Part shown: positions 15,641 through 24,363 of the stretch, in pieces
How positions within the stretch are numbered: position 1 is the stretch's first letter
Layout: every line of letters starts with the position of its first letter
Source of the DNA: Lobosporangium transversale
Taxonomy: Eukaryota
Direction: 5' to 3'
DNA length: 64,000 nucleotides
Assembly: GCF_002105155.1 (NCBI RefSeq)
Contig: NW_019028982.1
Coordinates: 372,001-436,000 of the forward strand
Notes under the pieces: model-generated
Seen by the model: only the letters and a program-made list of their open reading frames with translations
Told to the model about the DNA's origin: nothing
The model's database searches: none
Translations under genes and position numbers: made by a program

Positions 15641-16404
15641 CAATCCCCCTTCCACAGCTGCAAAGTATCCAAATTCACCATCCCTCTTCACAAAGGCTGT
15701 CGTATAGAGCATCTGGTCTCTATGGCTCCTGAGAACGCGGATATACGTATATGGAGTCGAACTGTCACCAACTATCAAAAGACAAGTAATCTCTCGGGTT
15801 ACAAATGGATGGGAGGATAGACATTCCACAAAATAAACTGAGGTCTATCCATTGTATTTTGGTGAATTTGATAAACAAAATTTAGTACCGAGGGCGCTTG
15901 AGCTCTTAATAAAGGGAAAAGAAATAGAGTAGTAACACAGTAACACGGCACGCTATGCATCGTAGCAATGTATATTTACCGAAACAAACTACACGTTAGA
16001 GGTCCCTAATTACTGAACTCATCGTTGTGTGCTTAATAGTGTACGGAAATACTAGAGATGTATGCACGCGCTAAATGAAAGAAGTATCGGGGAACCATCC
16101 ATAATCTATAACAACACGGCTAACAAAAGTGCGAAGTAGAGCGGCATAGTATATTTCAATTATAGATAAATCATTTGTAATTCTGTATTTAGTCCCAGAG
16201 TCGCATAAAGAATGCCAGCATCTACTCTGAGCTACGTACGACCTTGATAAGATAAATATTCTGGTCAGTATTTGATACCTGGGTATCGACTCTGGATCTA
16301 AGCTTGTGTCGTGGAAGGCTTCCTGGTAGTGGTATTTAAGACTGAAATAAAGAGCACGTACAAATGAAAAAAAAGATTATTTGTACAGGGGAGCAGTGTA
16401 AATA

Positions 16405-16956
16405 GGATTAATCTATTTGGCAGCCTAGTTGCTAAATATTATTTGGCAGCCCATTGCCAAATATAATCAACTTTCAAGACTCTCTTTGGCAGCCCAGTTG
16501 CCAAATAACATTCATTATTTACTTGGCAGCCTACCCAGCGTTATTTGGCCTCTAACTATTTTTTTTTTTTTTTTTTCATTCCTAGGAACCGTATGTGTGT
16601 ATAACGCTCATACTTTAAATTAATAAAGCTCCCATCTTCTACGTCATGGTTATGTGTAGTGACATTGTCTTGTCTCATTGAAAACTAATGACTTTTTTTT
16701 TCAAGTAGGTCGCTCATACAGTTTTGGAGGTGCCATTTGGAGATCAATACCTATGAGAGGTTTTCGCTCGGAGCAAACGCGTCTCACCTGCTACCTAGAC
16801 GTCTTCAATAAATCATTCCTTAACCGTGTACATTGAAGGCTGTTTTGTGAAGATATCATCGCCGCTGCCCTTAGTACCTCCGGTGGCATTAGCTGTGCAA
16901 GGCAATGTATCCACAGAACGCTGCCTGTTTTACCACTGATGTTATGACCCTGTTAT

Positions 16957-16990
<34 letters not shown>

Positions 16991-17219
16991 TAATGTATTT
17001 GGCAGCCCAGCTGCCACCCAAGAGTGCGAAGTTAAGTGGCAGCCCCCAGAAGTAGGCTGCCAAATAGAGGCAAAAATTACTATAATTGGTATGGGCTGCC
17101 AAATAGATTAATCCTAGGCTCGTTCCCAGCCCCTTCACTTTAGGTGACTCAAAAAGGAAATGGAATTTCCTGTCACCTTTATAAAGTGAAGAGGGATGGG
17201 TACGAGCCTAGATTAATCC
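16405..17219. mobile_element. Non-autonomous DNA transposon (Mutator-like MITE) with 9-bp TSD
   Basis: TIR GGATTAATCTATTTGGCAGCC (16405-16425) / GGCTGCCAAATAGATTAATCC (17094-17114); TSD GTGTAAATA at 16396-16404 and 17220-17228; about 8 subterminal TGGCAGCC motifs. Confidence 0.88.
17115..17210. mobile_element. 96-bp fold-back MITE nested in the right TIR of the larger element
   Basis: TAGGCTCGTTCCCA...CTTCACTTTA / TAAAGTGAAG...TGGGTACGAGCCTA inverted arms; flanked by duplicated GATTAATCC (17106-17114, 17211-17219). Confidence 0.85.
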
Positions 17220-17294: not shown

Positions 17295-17368
17295 CGCTCC
17301 TGGGTGGGCTTGAACCACCAACCTCCTGATTAACAGTCAGACGCGCTAACCAATTGCGCCACAAGAGC
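17295..17368 (-). tRNA. tRNA-Asn (GTT), intronless
   Basis: GCTCTTG-TGGCGCAATTGGTTAGCGCG-TCTGA CT GTT AA TCAGG-AGGTT-GGTGG TTCAAGC CCACC-CAGGAGC G cloverleaf; T4 run shortly downstream. Confidence 0.97.
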
Positions 17369-17471
17369 AGATAGCGAACGCATGCATTAATTATCTATAT
17401 TAAGTTACTTGCACCACGTGACTAGCCGAGAAGCCCTTAATGAGCTGCTGCTAACTTAATTTTTATGATCA

Positions 17472-19265
17472 GTCTGTGGTGTCGCTTTTTGATCTGAGGG
17501 TCCTTGTTATCAAAAAAAAAAAAAAAAAAAAAAAAAAATGTGGTGTCGCTTCAGGTAGAGTCGATGGGTATGCTTCATCCACCAAGGCAGAGCTAGTAGG
17601 ACTGTACGCAGCCATTCTAGTCAGTCCCCGTAACGTTCCAACGACTGTCTACATAGACAACATGGCGGTAGTGGTTCAGTTCAAGGACCTTGCTCAAAAG
17701 CGAGAAGCAAGCACTGAACGGCAGCGATTGCGATCCAAGTACGCAGTGTGGTGGGCAGCCATTTCGAGAGCGCTCTTAAGCAGGGCGGGAAGGTAACTGT
17801 GAAATGGATCAAGGGCCATGCTGGGAATAGAGGCAATATAAGGGCAGACCAAGCCGCCAAAGATGCTCATTTTAGCGAAATGTGGACAATCAAAGTACTG
17901 GAACACAACGATCTGCGCTGTCACGCTATTTTCGAGAACGAGGTGGTGGAGGATGATCTTAGACACCTGCTAAAGCTCCAATCAGCAGTGAGAACACATT
18001 ACTTGTGGGCGTCTCAGAACAGAGTCAGGAATTATATTGCAGACTGGCGAGAAGTAGAATGGAAAGCAAGCCTGCATATTCTTCACGATGGCAACACGCC
18101 TAGAGGCCTCTTCACCAGCCCAGCAGATTGTCACAAGAGAGCGCACAGAATAAAGAAGGTCCATGGTATGCTTCCTACACTCACTTATATGAGGCAATGG
18201 CGACCGGACCTGTATGAGACTGACATCTGCAGGATGTGTGAACAGGAGCAGGAGGACATAGAACACCTCTGGCGATGTCCCATGACACTGGACGAGCAAT
18301 TGAAAGGTTGGAAGCAGGCCATAGAACTCATCACGAAGGATGGCAAAAGAGCATTAGTGAAGGAGAAGAAGCTCTGGGAAGACAAACAAGGGAAAACACA
18401 GGAGCCAAACCTGAATAAAGGAGGTCCCTCGTTTACACCTGTAGCCGACAACGTGATTTGGGGCTCTTTGGAAGCGATGTTCAAGGGCGTCAGAGAGATT
18501 CGACATGCGAGCACTCTGTTTGGTGAGGAAGAGGTGGATATGGGGCGGAGGAACGAGGGTGAGGATGCTCACTGGACTGTCCAAGACTTGTACCACGGTT
18601 TGGTGCCGAAGGAACTGATACAAAAATGGAAGACGATCTTCAGAACCACAGCATCGATCTCAAGGTACATTGTTTGCCGCTTTGTCAAGTCAATCGAGGA
18701 ACTCGGCAGGACTGAAATCTGGAACAGACGCTGCAAAGTCACCGTCAACTGGGAAAGAGACAATGGTATCACCTCTGTGAGCAAACGCGCCAGGGGACGC
18801 AACTGTGTTGGGAGGCACAGACGTAGCAGAGGTGAATTCTTTGGCTCTCACCAGGGACAACGACGAACAGCAGATGTGAAGGCGATCAGGACTGAGGCAG
18901 ACCGGCGAGTGGCGGCAAGCTACCGGCAGCAGGTGGAATTGGCGATTATGGAGCGCCTGGAAAGCTGTAAATTTTTGATGATTGAAGACAGCGGCTAAAG
19001 GATGACCTTCGCACACAACAGGCCAAGTAGGGAGTAGAGCCGTGCCACAGATCCTCTGGGACCAAGGAAGTCTACTCAATGCTGACGTGGTTTATGAACA
19101 GGATGTAGTACTGTGGCAGTATGACGATGCGGCTTCGGTCGATTATTGGATACCGCTTTATTTGCGCCCCTAATAATAGGGCAACCCATTTACAGAGTCT
19201 ATCTCCAATAAATCCTCATGACCTCGTGGGTCCCAGTTATCAAAAAAAAAAAAAAAAAAAAAAAA
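17472..19265 (+). mobile_element. 5'-truncated non-LTR retrotransposon (RNase H, CCHC zinc knuckle, 3' UTR, A24 tail), frameshifted
   Basis: RNase H motifs SSTKAELVGLYAAI...VYIDN and, after a frameshift near 17780, VKWIKGHAGNRGNIRADQAAK; CRMCEQEQEDIEHLWRC; stop at 18998; ends GTTATC(A)24. The 5' boundary is approximate. Confidence 0.9.
17488..17538 (+). mobile_element. Extremely truncated non-LTR insertion (24 nt + A27) with 13-bp TSD
   Basis: TSD TGTGGTGTCGCTT at 17475-17487 and 17539-17551; ends GGGTCCTTGTTATC(A)27, like the neighbouring LINE tails. Confidence 0.9.
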
Positions 19266-19534
19266 TCATCACCTCTGCGAACAGGTCAAGTGAGGAGTAG
19301 AGCCGCTCCACGGGTTTCCAGGGGACCAAGGAAGCCTAATTAATACTGACGTGGTTTATGAACAGGACGTTGTACTGCGGCAGTACAACGTTACAGCTTT
19401 AGCAGATTTTTAGATATCGTTTTATTCGCGGCCCAGTATTGGGGCAACCCATTTAATGAGCTAACCTCTTAATGATTTCTGCATGGCCTCGTGGGTCTTC
19501 GTTATCAAAAAAAAAAAAAAAAAAAAAAAAAAAA
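19266..19534 (+). mobile_element. Diverged 3'-UTR fragment of the same LINE family with A28 tail
   Basis: Colinear with 19016-19241 (shared GGAGTAGAGCCG, GGGACCAAGGAAG, CTGACGTGGTTTATGAACAGGA, GGGCAACCCATTTA, CCTCGTGGGTC, GTTATC(A)n). Confidence 0.9.
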
Positions 19535-21118
19535 CACTAATGGACATACCACTCACCCAGACCATAAAGCAAGAAGAGTCGTGCCATCACGCACGGCGGC
19601 TAAAGCAGCTTAATAAAAAAATGAAGTAGAACGCGAAAAGGTGCCAATCAAAATTAATAAACGAGAGAGTATAATATGTTGGAAATACAATCCCAATGAC
19701 AGAAACCAAAACCATCATAGTTTAGAGCGCTCCATCAATTTTTTTTTTAAAAAAGAGACGGAAGACTCCTTTTTTCAGCCTAGGCTCACATAGGAGCAAA
19801 AGAACCTAGGCTTGAATTAAAAAACAGCTTAAGGATCGAGGACTCGAAGAACGACTGGGGAGCTAAAGTAAGGTCAGCCAAGAATTGAACACATACAATC
19901 CATTGGTTTACAAATTGCCTATTTGCTTCTAGCTCTATCCTTTGACAAACTACTACCTCAACCAGAAAGAGGGTAGTTTACAAAGCTATAAGTGCCGTCC
20001 ATCCAGTCTGGCTATGCCCGACCAAACTCTCCAAGGATATTTCTGTGACAGTTACTATCATGAATCAATCCATTTACGTTCACGATTCCTATCCAATTAA
20101 ATTATTAATTGTTGGTCAGACTAAAGTGTCTTTGTTTGCTATTACGAGGTAAAGATCTCTGCAAAGCTCTTAATAAGACCTTGATGCCAACTTCCCTTCT
20201 GTTCATTCGTTACTATTCATAAAGATACTCATAGTCTTTATCGGATTTGACAAGATCACTACTTGTTATTAACTTTATCAACATTTTTTGACATCCTTGT
20301 CTATTTTATTTATTTCTTATGCATTGTCCTGGTATCTACGCCGACAATAACAAAGGCTACCCAGCCACATAACGGGAAGCTAGTCGCTTCTCAAGGTGTA
20401 GTGTCGAGTCCTAGGGTAGTTGTTCCTTTTCTTAAGCTGCCTTGAAGGTGGTCAAGACGAAAGCTAGCAGGGAGTTATCAACAACCATTGGGACTGATGG
20501 CAACGTGAAATGGCTTACGGAACATGAAAACAAAGAGGTCAATAGCTGCTTTGAATTGTCCCTAGTCGTGTCCCTTTTAATGAACTTCGTCATAGCCTTC
20601 ACGTAGTATTCTGATTTTACGAATGGAATGAAGTGGCCCTGGACGCTCTCCTAAACCCCTGGACGTGGCATAATGGGGAAACTTGAGACTGTCGTTATCT
20701 AAAGGCTGTGAAGTGTAGCTAGAAGATGGCCTTTGCGTACAACAGGCTAGATAGAGGGCTCAAGGTTCATCATAAGGTTCATAGGGATCAAGAGAGCTAC
20801 TGTTCATCTTGACATAAGTTTGTGAATAGTGTGTTACGTAGTGCGACAATAGAATTAAGGCAGTTTACAATAAGGTATTCCACTTTAGAGCCCGGTATCC
20901 ATACGCCTTCATGACTTCGTAAGATCTAGTTATCAATTTGAGGCGATGGAAGTTGTAGTGTCATTTTGGGATTTGGGGCAGCAAGCCACAAGTCTACACT
21001 ACACGAGCAACTGCGCCACCTGTACAAGTTTTTTTTTTTTTTTTTTTTTTTCCCACAGACATTCAATTGCTGCCACAGACATATTTTTACCGCCTTACTT
21101 TTTAACATAAAAATATAT

Positions 21119-21186
21119 AGGACAGGACAGGACAGGGCAGGATAGGGTAGGCCAGGATAGGGTAGGCCAGGATAGGATTGGACAGG
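21119..21186 (+). repeat. Degenerate pentamer array (NNAGG)n abutting the F-box gene start
   Basis: gacaggacaggacagggcaggatagggtaggccaggatagggtaggccaggatagg. Confidence 0.8.
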
Positions 21187-24100
21187 ATGTTTCTTCCCAC
21201 AGCGATGGAGAATGTGTTCTCGGTGCCCGAGTTATTACATCATATTCAGTTGTGGCTCTCAAAGACTGACCTTGCGAATTGCATCCTTGTCTCGAAAGCT
21301 TTCCAAAAGACCTTTACTCCGCTTCTCTGGCATACAATCTCACTCAAGACATTAGTCCAACACCGCCGATTTACAGAGAATCCAGAAGTGCAACATGCCC
21401 TTGCTAGGAATATGGTTCACATTCGAGTCATTCAAATTCAGAGCTGCAAGAGTCTGGAGCCATTCTTGATGGCCGATATTTCTCAGCTGAAGCACTTACA
21501 CACACTCGAGTTTCCATGGCCCGCAAGGGCCGATACAGACTACCGAGGGTTCTTGAAGAGGCAAAGGTTAACTATAACGCCTGATGGGACCCCTATATAT
21601 GTGAACGCTACACCAGCACCTGACAGCATTGGAAACCCTCCAATAGACTCTACTCTTCTTGGGCCAGTGGACTGGATGGATATGAAGTCTGTATTTTTAA
21701 TATATTATCAAAAGATGGAGTTGCATAGTCATCTTCAAAGGTGTGAGCGTGAAGTGATCCAACAATTCAAACAGGAGTATCATACCTGGGTCGTTGAAAA
21801 CTTCCAAAAATATCATCAATTAGCGGAGCAGTATATGGCGGAATCGCTACAGGCAGGGGAAGCTGGCTATCCGGTTTTAGGGACAACAGCAAACGGCGCC
21901 GCCGCCGCAACAGCAGCGGCGGAAACAACAAAGCAGTGGATAGGCATGCTCTTATGGGAAATCACACACTACATAAGACTAGTGGACTCCTTCCTCATCA
22001 TGCCACTCAGCATTCGTCCTACTACACTTGAACAAGAGCTTTTAGACTGGTTTCGACGTCTCAAGGAGCAGAAAAAAACACTACTAGATATCACTGAGGT
22101 GCTTGAGGAACGATATTCCGCCGCTACACGGATACGGACAAGGCAGGACCAGATAGTTGAGCAGCAGGCATCACCAAAAGACAAAAGCGCACAAAGGAAG
22201 CCCCTGAATACATCGGAGCAGTTGTATCGGCTCCACTCGACTCTAAAGACGCAGTGGGAAGAAATCCCGCAGAACACATGTGTCATTCAAAGTCGTCTAC
22301 GGATGTTGCGGGACCCGACCTCATTAAGCTCATCTCAAGTTGTAGATGGTTTTGGCATATTCCCGCATCAAAGCCGCCTCCAATGCGAGCAGCAAACTGA
22401 AAGCCAGCGCCTAAGAGATGAAGTAGAGAATATGCTGCTACGACTGCAGGGTGGAAATAATAATGGACAGGGGAAACTTATTGTTCGAAAGCAAGTCCCA
22501 CGCGATGACCTTGACTTATTCCTGGACCAAATTTATATATTTATTCGGTCATTAGCTCAGGATGAAAGATCCGCAGTTATCGATCGGATACAACAACAAG
22601 TTAGTTTGACTTCAACCGAGCCGCCCTCATCGCCAGATCGTAGGAGGCCCCCAGCATCTACGGTACCAAAACCATTACCATGGGACTACGATACCGACCA
22701 AGATCGAAACCACCTTGTCCAGTTCCTTCACCACGCTCCAAAAATTACGGCATTTCATTCAGCCCGGCCACTGACTTGGGATTGTGGTCTATACCAAGCT
22801 CTATCAACCCGTCTCAAGACCTTCTCAGAAATGACCTCCATATCCATATATACTCAGGAACTTGATCAGCATTGGTGCAGCGGTAATTTAGAACACCTTT
22901 TAGATGCCTGTTCTCCGCAACTAGAGGCCTTAAGGATAGCCGGGCCCCAGACCTTTAGGGCAGAAGTACTCGCACAAAATGTGGGTGCTCTTCAGTCAAG
23001 CCAAAACTGCAGTCAGGCTAAAAAAATGCGTCAAATAGAGACCAGTAGGACAAGCCTAAGGCGATTGGCTCTTGAAGGTGATTGTAAGCACTATTTCCGA
23101 CCTTCATTCTTGAATCGGTGTCCCGAACTGAAATCACTAAGCTTGAGCGACTGTCAAGATTCTCTAGTTGAAGACATAAGTCGCTGGATCCAAAGTTGTT
23201 GTCCACTGCTAGAGGAGTTGGCAATATCCAAGGTCACAGAGCCTCGTGCAGCGGGTGCATTAGATGCTATCCTTGGAGCTTGCGTAGGTTTATCCTCCTC
23301 AACCGACCTCCGCAGCTGCACAGTGCCCCTATTGAAAAAAGGAAATGTTTATGTCAATAGCCAAGCTGGACAAACGACAAATTTGAAAAGTCTACTTGTC
23401 TTTGGCTACCAGTTTGCAGAACATGATCCTGCGATTGATGCAATATGTCAGCACGGCCGAAAGGGACTAAGGTATTTCGCGCTTAAGAGCTGTGAAGGTC
23501 TTTGGACAAGACGACAGCTCGATCTTGCTACCCATGAAATGAAGATCATAGAAGGAGATCCGCCACAGATCTACAGGGTTCTAGAAGCGTTAGGCCCTCA
23601 ATTAGAATACCTTGATCTTTTACATTATGGTGGGGTACCACTTCGTAGTCCAGCTTATAGTCGGTTTGAAGCCACCGATTTCGCCAAGTACGCTTATGCA
23701 AATAACAACTTCAACAGCGGTAATGGACACCACGATGATAACAGCAGCGACAATAGTAACGGCAGTGCCAGCACCGGAAATAGAAGTATGACCAAGGACC
23801 AATGCGGTAATGGACAGCGGCTGATTTGGGTGTTTATTCCAACACTAAAAGTGCTCCGAATCTGCATCGGCGGCTTCTATCGTCCAACTTTGGATAATCG
23901 TCATTCAACTACAATTTATCCATTTAACCCTAGGATAAAAGACCCCATTATGAGTCGAGACATTGAGATTCGTGTCTGTCAAATCTTGGGCTCGTTCTCT
24001 GCACTAGAGGAGCTACATCTAGGGCTAGATGAAGCAGACGGTCCATATTGTATTGGGGACCCGTCAATGATGTTCCAGAATACTTCGTTAGCCTTGTCCC

Positions 24101-24363
24101 TAGATCATGGACTATGGGCGATGAGTGGGCTGAAGCAGCTGAAGGTACTAAAGGTCACCAGAATGGATCATCGAATAGGGTTGGAAGAAATTCAGTGGAT
24201 GTGTGAGCATTGGCCAAGACTAGACATTGTGCACGGGCTCTTGAGGCAGATGAGTACAAAAGAGAGTATAGGGTTGCAAGAGAGATGGGAGCAACAGAAG
24301 GCAGAGAATGAAAGGATTGTAAAATGGCTCAAGGCGAACAAGCCTTTTTTAAGATACACTTAA
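21187..24363 (+). CDS. Intronless F-box / RNI-like LRR protein, about 1058 aa, with a large helical insertion
   Basis: VFSVPELLHHIQLWLSKTDLANCILVSKAFQKTFTPLLW F-box; LRR-like CPELKSLSL, CPLLEELAI; C-terminal LSLDHGLWAMSGLKQLKVL...IGLEEIQWMCEHWPRL. The start could be 21205. Confidence 0.85.
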   Translation: MFLPTAMENVFSVPELLHHIQLWLSKTDLANCILVSKAFQKTFTPLLWHTISLKTLVQHRRFTENPEVQHALARNMVHIRVIQIQSCKSLEPFLMADISQLKHLHTLEFPWPARADTDYRGFLKRQRLTITPDGTPIYVNATPAPDSIGNPPIDSTLLGPVDWMDMKSVFLIYYQKMELHSHLQRCEREVIQQFKQEYHTWVVENFQKYHQLAEQYMAESLQAGEAGYPVLGTTANGAAAATAAAETTKQWIGMLLWEITHYIRLVDSFLIMPLSIRPTTLEQELLDWFRRLKEQKKTLLDITEVLEERYSAATRIRTRQDQIVEQQASPKDKSAQRKPLNTSEQLYRLHSTLKTQWEEIPQNTCVIQSRLRMLRDPTSLSSSQVVDGFGIFPHQSRLQCEQQTESQRLRDEVENMLLRLQGGNNNGQGKLIVRKQVPRDDLDLFLDQIYIFIRSLAQDERSAVIDRIQQQVSLTSTEPPSSPDRRRPPASTVPKPLPWDYDTDQDRNHLVQFLHHAPKITAFHSARPLTWDCGLYQALSTRLKTFSEMTSISIYTQELDQHWCSGNLEHLLDACSPQLEALRIAGPQTFRAEVLAQNVGALQSSQNCSQAKKMRQIETSRTSLRRLALEGDCKHYFRPSFLNRCPELKSLSLSDCQDSLVEDISRWIQSCCPLLEELAISKVTEPRAAGALDAILGACVGLSSSTDLRSCTVPLLKKGNVYVNSQAGQTTNLKSLLVFGYQFAEHDPAIDAICQHGRKGLRYFALKSCEGLWTRRQLDLATHEMKIIEGDPPQIYRVLEALGPQLEYLDLLHYGGVPLRSPAYSRFEATDFAKYAYANNNFNSGNGHHDDNSSDNSNGSASTGNRSMTKDQCGNGQRLIWVFIPTLKVLRICIGGFYRPTLDNRHSTTIYPFNPRIKDPIMSRDIEIRVCQILGSFSALEELHLGLDEADGPYCIGDPSMMFQNTSLALSLDHGLWAMSGLKQLKVLKVTRMDHRIGLEEIQWMCEHWPRLDIVHGLLRQMSTKESIGLQERWEQQKAENERIVKWLKANKPFLRYT

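Follow-up and report, generated by a model that had tools for sequence, protein, structure and literature searches.

A Mortierellaceae LINE family that likely inserts by position, head-to-head, upstream of tRNA genes

Background

LINE elements of the AP-endonuclease type have little sequence preference, and the question is how host factors aim their insertion. This question is raised by a stretch of 64,000 nucleotides of the Lobosporangium transversale genome (the whole of which is called here the window), in which several copies of one LINE family are found upstream of the sole tRNA gene detected by ARAGORN and Rfam, a tRNA-Asn(GTT). A first, sequence-only reading had proposed that such copies were inserted upstream of the tRNA gene by position and orientation, and not by sequence. 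In Table 1 of one review (PMC5911963) and in another review (PMC5006619), the tRNA-gene-targeting non-LTR elements are reported from dictyostelids only. No fungal LINE aimed at tRNA genes was found described in the literature searched, outside of which lie most subscription journals and repeat-database reports. The analysis presented here points to a LINE family of Mortierellaceae whose insertion is likely guided by position, at about 100-120 nt upstream of a tRNA gene and in head-to-head orientation to it.

The stack upstream of the tRNA-Asn gene

Three plus-strand insertions, termed A, B and C, are stacked head-to-head with the tRNA-Asn gene (Table 1), an arrangement noticed from the letters alone and now borne out by the ARAGORN and Rfam call and by the mapping of the tails. 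All three end in GTTATC(A)n, at 17506 (A27), 19236 (A24) and 19501 (A28), exactly within the A24-28 range initially reported; the whole window contains four such tails, all on the plus strand, for none expected (100 shuffles). Protein and UTR-profile scans detected four copies of the family in the 64 kb, all four on the plus strand and upstream of the single tRNA gene.

Table 1. Features of the tRNA-Asn locus and octamers found near the anchors (window positions unless a locus is named)
Feature	Position	Strand	Description
tRNA-Asn(GTT), presumed anchor	17295-17368	minus	5' end at 17368; ARAGORN; Rfam RF00005, 68.1 bits
RTCACRTG octamer	17415-17422	unspecified	47 nt upstream of tRNA-Asn
Left TSD copy of insertion C	17475-17487	plus	13 bp; starts 106 nt from tRNA-Asn
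Insertion C	17488-17538	plus	24-nt LINE 3' end + A27; tail-only, 51 bp
Right TSD copy of insertion C	17539-17551	plus	13 bp
Insertion A, 5'-truncated LINE	17550-19265	plus	RNase H, zinc finger, C-terminal domain, 3' UTR, A24
Insertion B, diverged-subfamily copy	19268-19534	plus	3' UTR only + A28
Relic D	about 20700-20936	plus	old ORF2 stop + 3' UTR, tail eroded; 1.17 kb beyond B
RTCACRTG octamer, locus L018	387-396		other anchor
RTCACRTG octamer, locus L015	353-360		other anchor
RTCACRTG octamers, locus L005	73-80 and 104-111		other anchor

The target site duplication (TSD) attributed to the 51-bp insertion C is indeed a perfect 13-mer, at the distance from the tRNA gene originally given, and the tail of C matches that of a metagenome LINE (locus L001) over 36/37 nt including the poly(A). 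The coding part of insertion A comprises an RNase H match, a weak zf-RVT match and a stop at 18998, with a 1-nt frameshift at 17775 within RNase H. Insertion B had been taken for a diverged 3'-UTR copy, rightly so, its 3' UTR being 78.6% identical to that of A; it is joined to A's tail within 2 nt. A clean TSD is absent for both A and B, the best candidates being 7 bp with one mismatch. Farther out, relic D, which the first reading had not listed, is recognized by a UTR profile (E 2.8e-4, where 10 shuffles gave 0.029 at best) and matches A at 69%; a LINE body looked for between B and D was not found. Once the inner inserts are removed, the junctions of A and B lie about 117-119 nt from tRNA-Asn and the nick of C at 106 nt; relic D, after A-C are taken out, is about 1.3 kb away. 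These stack junctions are read from the window sequence itself; the contigs of the public runs, mapped with filters and with homopolymers skipped, leave 17406-17539 uncovered and display neither the empty site nor 5' junctions of other copies, such holes being uninformative.

The boundary between A and C had to be redrawn. Copy A was formerly described as a 1.8-kb RNase H LINE starting at about 17472; its RNase H is confirmed, its start is not. In a public run carrying the same species label, a multi-copy LINE contig leaves the window sequence just before 17550 (one contig, one run), and the loose letters of this contig upstream of 17550 continue the RNase H frame as in homologues (..PESFSNVV-SGRVD). 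Since the LINE contig departs at this point, copy A starts at about 17550, with a length of 1.7 kb, and C landed in non-LINE sequence, about 11 nt from A's junction. The TSD of C can therefore no longer be viewed as RNase H coding sequence, only its last 2 nt being common to the LINE. Its use as a proof that C was inserted after A falls as well: this TSD is almost entirely non-LINE and, for want of a clean TSD around A or B, the duplication does not show the order of the two events.

Two candidates were discarded. The GTTATC(A)31 at 16952 was rejected as a family member: it lies inside a terminal-inverted-repeat (TIR) element, without UTR homology, and no TSD was seen. The segment 17446-17487, considered as a 5' part of copy B, gave non-significant null fractions (0.015-0.20), and the profile alignment stops short of it. 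The TIR element in question, at 16403-17116, is a multi-copy non-coding repeat with perfect 23-bp TIRs and internal T18/A31 runs, located just downstream of tRNA-Asn; it is accompanied by a short palindromic element (17106-17218), and in three runs 17114 is directly linked to 17295 on a contig. Homopolymer runs are common in this DNA, the window containing about 50 A/T runs of at least 12 nt, mostly 18-32 nt, unrelated to the LINE tails.

The element and its family

The element is an APE-type non-LTR retrotransposon (LINE), with an ORF1 and an ORF2 combining AP endonuclease (APE), reverse transcriptase (RT), RNase H and a zinc finger. It displays the usual hallmarks of this class: poly(A) tails (A24-28), 5' truncation and TSDs of variable size (13 bp for C, 18 bp for locus L009). 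The protein closest to that of copy A, 98% identical, is labelled Lobosporangium transversale, and further named matches come from Mortierella spp., Podila, Benniella, Gamsiella and Entomortierella. A full-length relative, locus L002, encodes an ORF1 of 599 aa (weak RRM, CCHC) and an ORF2 of 1887-1896 aa with AP endonuclease (PF03372), RT (PF00078) and RNase H (PF00075) domains; it matches the C-terminus of the window LINE at 52%. In three runs from three studies, the body of A is found on contigs 17-20x deeper than the unique flank, a ratio to be read as a rough guide only to copy number. These multi-copy contigs differ from A by about 1% and are devoid of its frameshift at 17775. The L. transversale subfamily looks young, with about 17-20 near-identical copies by depth.

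An RT tree (83 rows, FastTree), whose rows contain no TRE5, NLTR, Tx1 or Grem-LINE1 reference, gathers nine Mortierellaceae-type ORF2s in one group (SH-like 99), nested in a broader set of long-ORF2 elements that are for the most part unnamed; of 30 rows looked up, those with a name are Glomeromycotina (Entrophospora, Geosiphon, Rhizophagus). No matches to the family were obtained in viral and prokaryote collections, and the ESM Atlas returned generic RT clusters only. The best PDB matches, human L1 ORF2p and then R2, are too weak for clade assignment. The proteins P0002 and P0029-P0032 and their relatives have an ORF2 of 1900-2600 aa, in which a long low-complexity, coiled-coil-like linker separates RT from RNase H. 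This linker is a candidate targeting tether.

Family copies in metagenomes

In the host, the geometry is known from this one locus; the other loci are metagenome contigs. They were collected by a protein scan that was blind to tRNA genes and that yielded 21 related loci (L001-L021). Ten of them, which begin within the element and lack a 5' junction, carry no information (L001, L003, L004, L006, L010, L011, L012, L013, L014 and L016); L006, once regarded as a counter-example, was dismissed on this ground, since it starts inside ORF2. In three others (L002, L007, L008), the element begins immediately after the poly(A) tail of another copy in the same orientation; L002 is also trailed by a further truncated copy, and L007 and L008, 97% identical, perhaps represent one event. 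The remaining eight (L005, L009, L015, L017, L018, L019, L020, L021) have a foreign flank and constitute the informative set.

A head-to-head tRNA gene is present at three of these eight loci. At L005, a full-length element, a tRNA-Cys on the opposite strand lies 98-153 nt from the junction. At L017, a tRNA-Glu is located at most 117 nt from the junction; this gene is cut by the contig start (Rfam positions 1-51) and its score of 25.3 bits (E 0.002) is below the gathering score. At L018, a tRNA-Leu is found at a distance of at most 134 nt, with a soft lower bound. A fourth locus, L015, carries a head-to-head tRNA-like relic 92-111 nt from the junction, with no tRNA call. This unit (228-301, minus strand) has an acceptor stem of 7-10 bp, a T arm and a B box, with no normal D or anticodon arm; its best Rfam match, mascRNA (E 0.015), is below the cut-off, and relaxed ARAGORN settings produced noise only. 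It would be either the remnant of a tRNA gene or a small Pol III RNA of unknown type. Locus L009, intact and flanked by an 18-bp TSD, was left unscored with just 121 nt of flank. Its first 11 nt presumably resemble a tRNA 5' end, 110 nt from the TSD; they are too short and were not counted. Finally, no tRNA was detected in the flanks of L019, L020 and L021, which cover at least 250-2300 nt; these three loci are all frameshifted and all come from one metagenome, and to discount them as old copies is a post hoc choice.

The anchored loci outside the window (L005, L015, L017, L018) originate from four metagenomes and from both main branches of the clade, as assigned by a quick tree search on the C-terminal part. 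Together with the window, the head-to-head orientation is observed at 5/5 anchored loci, and a tRNA gene is present at 3/3 of the uninterrupted copies with enough flank. The distance between junction and tRNA is about 100-150 nt over the anchored loci (106-119 in the window; upper bounds of 111-153 elsewhere). A sharp distance peak is displayed by the window, L017 and L015 only, the junction bounds being loose for L005 and L018 and the frame of L018 being open back to the tRNA. Inspection of six junction regions and ten 3' flanks revealed no common target motif.

The chance of finding an opposite-strand tRNA within 200 nt at three of eight loci is 2e-7 for 1 tRNA per 64 kb and 7e-6 for 1 per 20 kb; counted over all 21 loci, these values become 5e-6 and 2e-4. 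Both densities are assumed, 1 per 64 kb being the window's own. As two of the three tRNA-bearing contigs begin inside the tRNA, we infer that assembly breaks would hide anchors, not add them.

Explanations for the clustering at tRNA genes

The proposal of an insertion upstream of tRNA genes by position and orientation thus keeps a basis, which has changed in nature. The argument drawn from a TSD in coding sequence is lost, and three of the eight informative loci are without a tRNA; the independent loci sustain the proposal, with three head-to-head tRNA genes out of eight and one tRNA-like relic, for four tRNA types including that of the window. Against anchoring stand these three loci without tRNA, together with relic D and its distance of about 1.3 kb from tRNA-Asn. 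Taken as a whole, an explanation by position-guided, head-to-head insertion upstream of tRNA genes, with a tether to the Pol III machinery, target-primed reverse transcription (TPRT) and stacking, is considered probable.

Alternatively, the targeting could be real and yet owe its site to chromatin, or to a host factor bound at an E-box some 50 nt ahead of the tRNA gene, and not to a direct contact with TFIIIB/TFIIIC, the nick occurring some 55-65 nt beyond that E-box. Such a host factor would presumably be Cbf1-like. An octamer of the E-box/CDEI type, RTCACRTG, is found at most 100 nt upstream of four of the five anchors, versus 3 of 639 background 100-bp windows, and the insertion distance is twice that of the TFIIIB-tethered TRE5-A. 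The octamer lies 47, 52 and 53 nt from three of the anchors; however, its distances at L005 are different (6 and 37 nt), it is absent in L017 and it was chosen after inspection of the data. Being palindromic, the octamer alone would not fix an orientation. The comparison is moreover restricted to targeted anchors, and the motif may be a general feature of these tRNA promoters; Pol III genes of such fungi may commonly carry it upstream, for which no paper was found in the literature searched. A role of chromatin has a precedent in Ty1, whose sites upstream of tRNA genes are described as defined by nucleosomes (PMC5911963, PMC5006619). All in all, this alternative to a TFIIIB/TFIIIC contact is rated as unlikely.

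A weaker case can be made for a broad insertion followed by selection, in which the copies near tRNA genes would be those that were tolerated and the stacks would result from re-insertion of the element at its own ends. It would accommodate the three informative loci and the relic D that are away from a tRNA, as well as the stacks without visible tRNA at L002, L007 and L008. Tolerance, however, gives neither one orientation at 5/5 anchored loci nor a distance of 100-150 nt. It is intact copies that are found next to tRNA genes, whereas decayed ones are away from them, the reverse of a retention bias, which is unlikely for this reason, and C landed in non-LINE sequence. The probability that we grant to this scenario is low.

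Lowest of all is that of a stack produced by one event, through template jumps between LINE RNAs, or in part by an assembly artefact at homopolymers, instead of three hits: the A-B joint within 2 nt, the lack of a clean TSD there and the absence of any public-run contig bridging the stack junctions (homopolymers being skipped) are in its favor, but a perfect 13-bp TSD surrounds C alone, the tails of A, B and C belong to different subfamilies (79% identity and less) with A about 1% from the young family, the unique flanking DNA is identical in three runs and the loci outside the window stand independently of the stack; a single template jump or an artefact could explain A and B, not C's TSD or the outside loci.

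Proposed mechanism

By analogy with TRE5-A, the position-guided insertion favored here likely involves a tether to the Pol III complex followed by target-primed reverse transcription. An RNA-protein particle would be tethered to TFIIIB/TFIIIC at the tRNA gene and, at a set reach from the tether, would nick the strand on which reverse transcription can be primed at the poly(A) tail. An early termination of reverse transcription would leave short copies, and repeated insertion at one spot would build a pile-up in which the older copies are pushed outward. The doubled distance as compared to TRE5 could stem from a tether of greater length or from the position at which the first nucleosome upstream begins.

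A bolder version can only be put forward with reserve, and we hold it to be doubtful as a whole. Throughout the evolution of the Mortierellaceae, and in both main branches, an unclassified clade of long-ORF2 RNase H LINEs would have targeted a site about 110 nt ahead of Pol III genes, by a route separate from that of TRE5, with a host protein that binds an E-box at about -50 setting the distance. No other LINE lineage of fungi would precede it in having its integration guided by Pol III, and its L. transversale member would be young and probably still active.

Comparison with known systems

The closest precedent is provided by the TRE5-A/B/C elements. As described in the sources consulted, TRE5 is an L1-type, poly(A)-tailed, two-ORF APE-RT element without target sequence (PMC5391098, PMC5911963), and the 5' end of Dictyostelium discoideum TRE5-A always faces the tRNA 5' end, with tandems at re-targeted genes (PMC5391098). 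TRE5 insertion takes place 44-54 bp upstream of the tRNA, 80% of it at 47+/-3. TRE5-A requires an intact B box, and its ORF1 protein binds TFIIIB subunits (PMC5006619 section 11, PMC5911963). The Mortierellaceae family shares with TRE5 the two-ORF APE-RT organization, the poly(A), the head-to-head position upstream of tRNA genes (5/5), the tandems and the lack of a target sequence. It differs by its fungal host, by its distance of about 100-150 nt, outside the 44-54 bp of TRE5, and by an ORF2 of 1900-2400 aa that includes RNase H, in contrast to the APE-RT-zinc finger layout of TRE5.

An RNase H downstream of RT is found, as in the present family, in NLTR-A (D. purpureum) and NLTR-B (P. pallidum), APE-RT-RNase H elements located upstream of tRNA genes, which section 9 of PMC5006619 assigns to none of the known clades with RNase H. 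Their distances are 2-6 and 39-64 bp respectively; compared by description, the present family differs by its distance of about 100-150 nt. An origin independent of the dictyostelid elements, put forward in the first reading, is at most a possibility, the APE-RT-RNase H layout being common to the family and to NLTR-A/B. In fungi, Ty3 inserts about 15 bp upstream of Pol III genes and Ty1 in nucleosomes over a window of about 750 bp (PMC5006619 section 11). These elements, like other yeast LTR elements at Pol III genes, have in common with the family a fungal host and a position upstream of tRNA genes, but they are LTR elements that use an integrase. Grem-LINE1 of Mucor circinelloides, an L1-like LINE of a Mucoromycota host, also shows a positional bias; by its description it is pericentromeric, and the word "tRNA" is absent from the main text of its report (10.1101/706580). 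The family shows no shared motif in its junction flanks. It differs in this respect from the sequence-specific Tx1-type elements near RNA genes, such as Dewa, which have a conserved target sequence.

A fungal lineage with another domain layout and twice the distance would offer a second system for the study of host-guided targeting by AP-endonuclease LINEs. The tether is testable, given the culturable host family, the young-looking L. transversale subfamily and the full-length relatives in hand, and a programmable safe-harbour LINE is of interest to genome engineering.

Associated elements

Other sequences accompany the copies described above. Directly before the full-length element of L002, positions 17-911 comprise a tRNA-like head with a B box (about 17-100), a LINE-type 3' UTR and a poly(A) ending at 911. 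From this layout it is possibly a SINE mobilised by the LINE family; the tRNA-like stretches at the start of L002 have no Rfam support. In L013, from 686 onwards, an LTR-like element that carries a gag-like frame interrupts a LINE copy; a portion of this LTR-like element is also present after L008. In the window, beyond relic D, an open frame of 1065 codons (21166-24363, plus strand) shows an F-box-like match at its N-terminus (E 3e-5).
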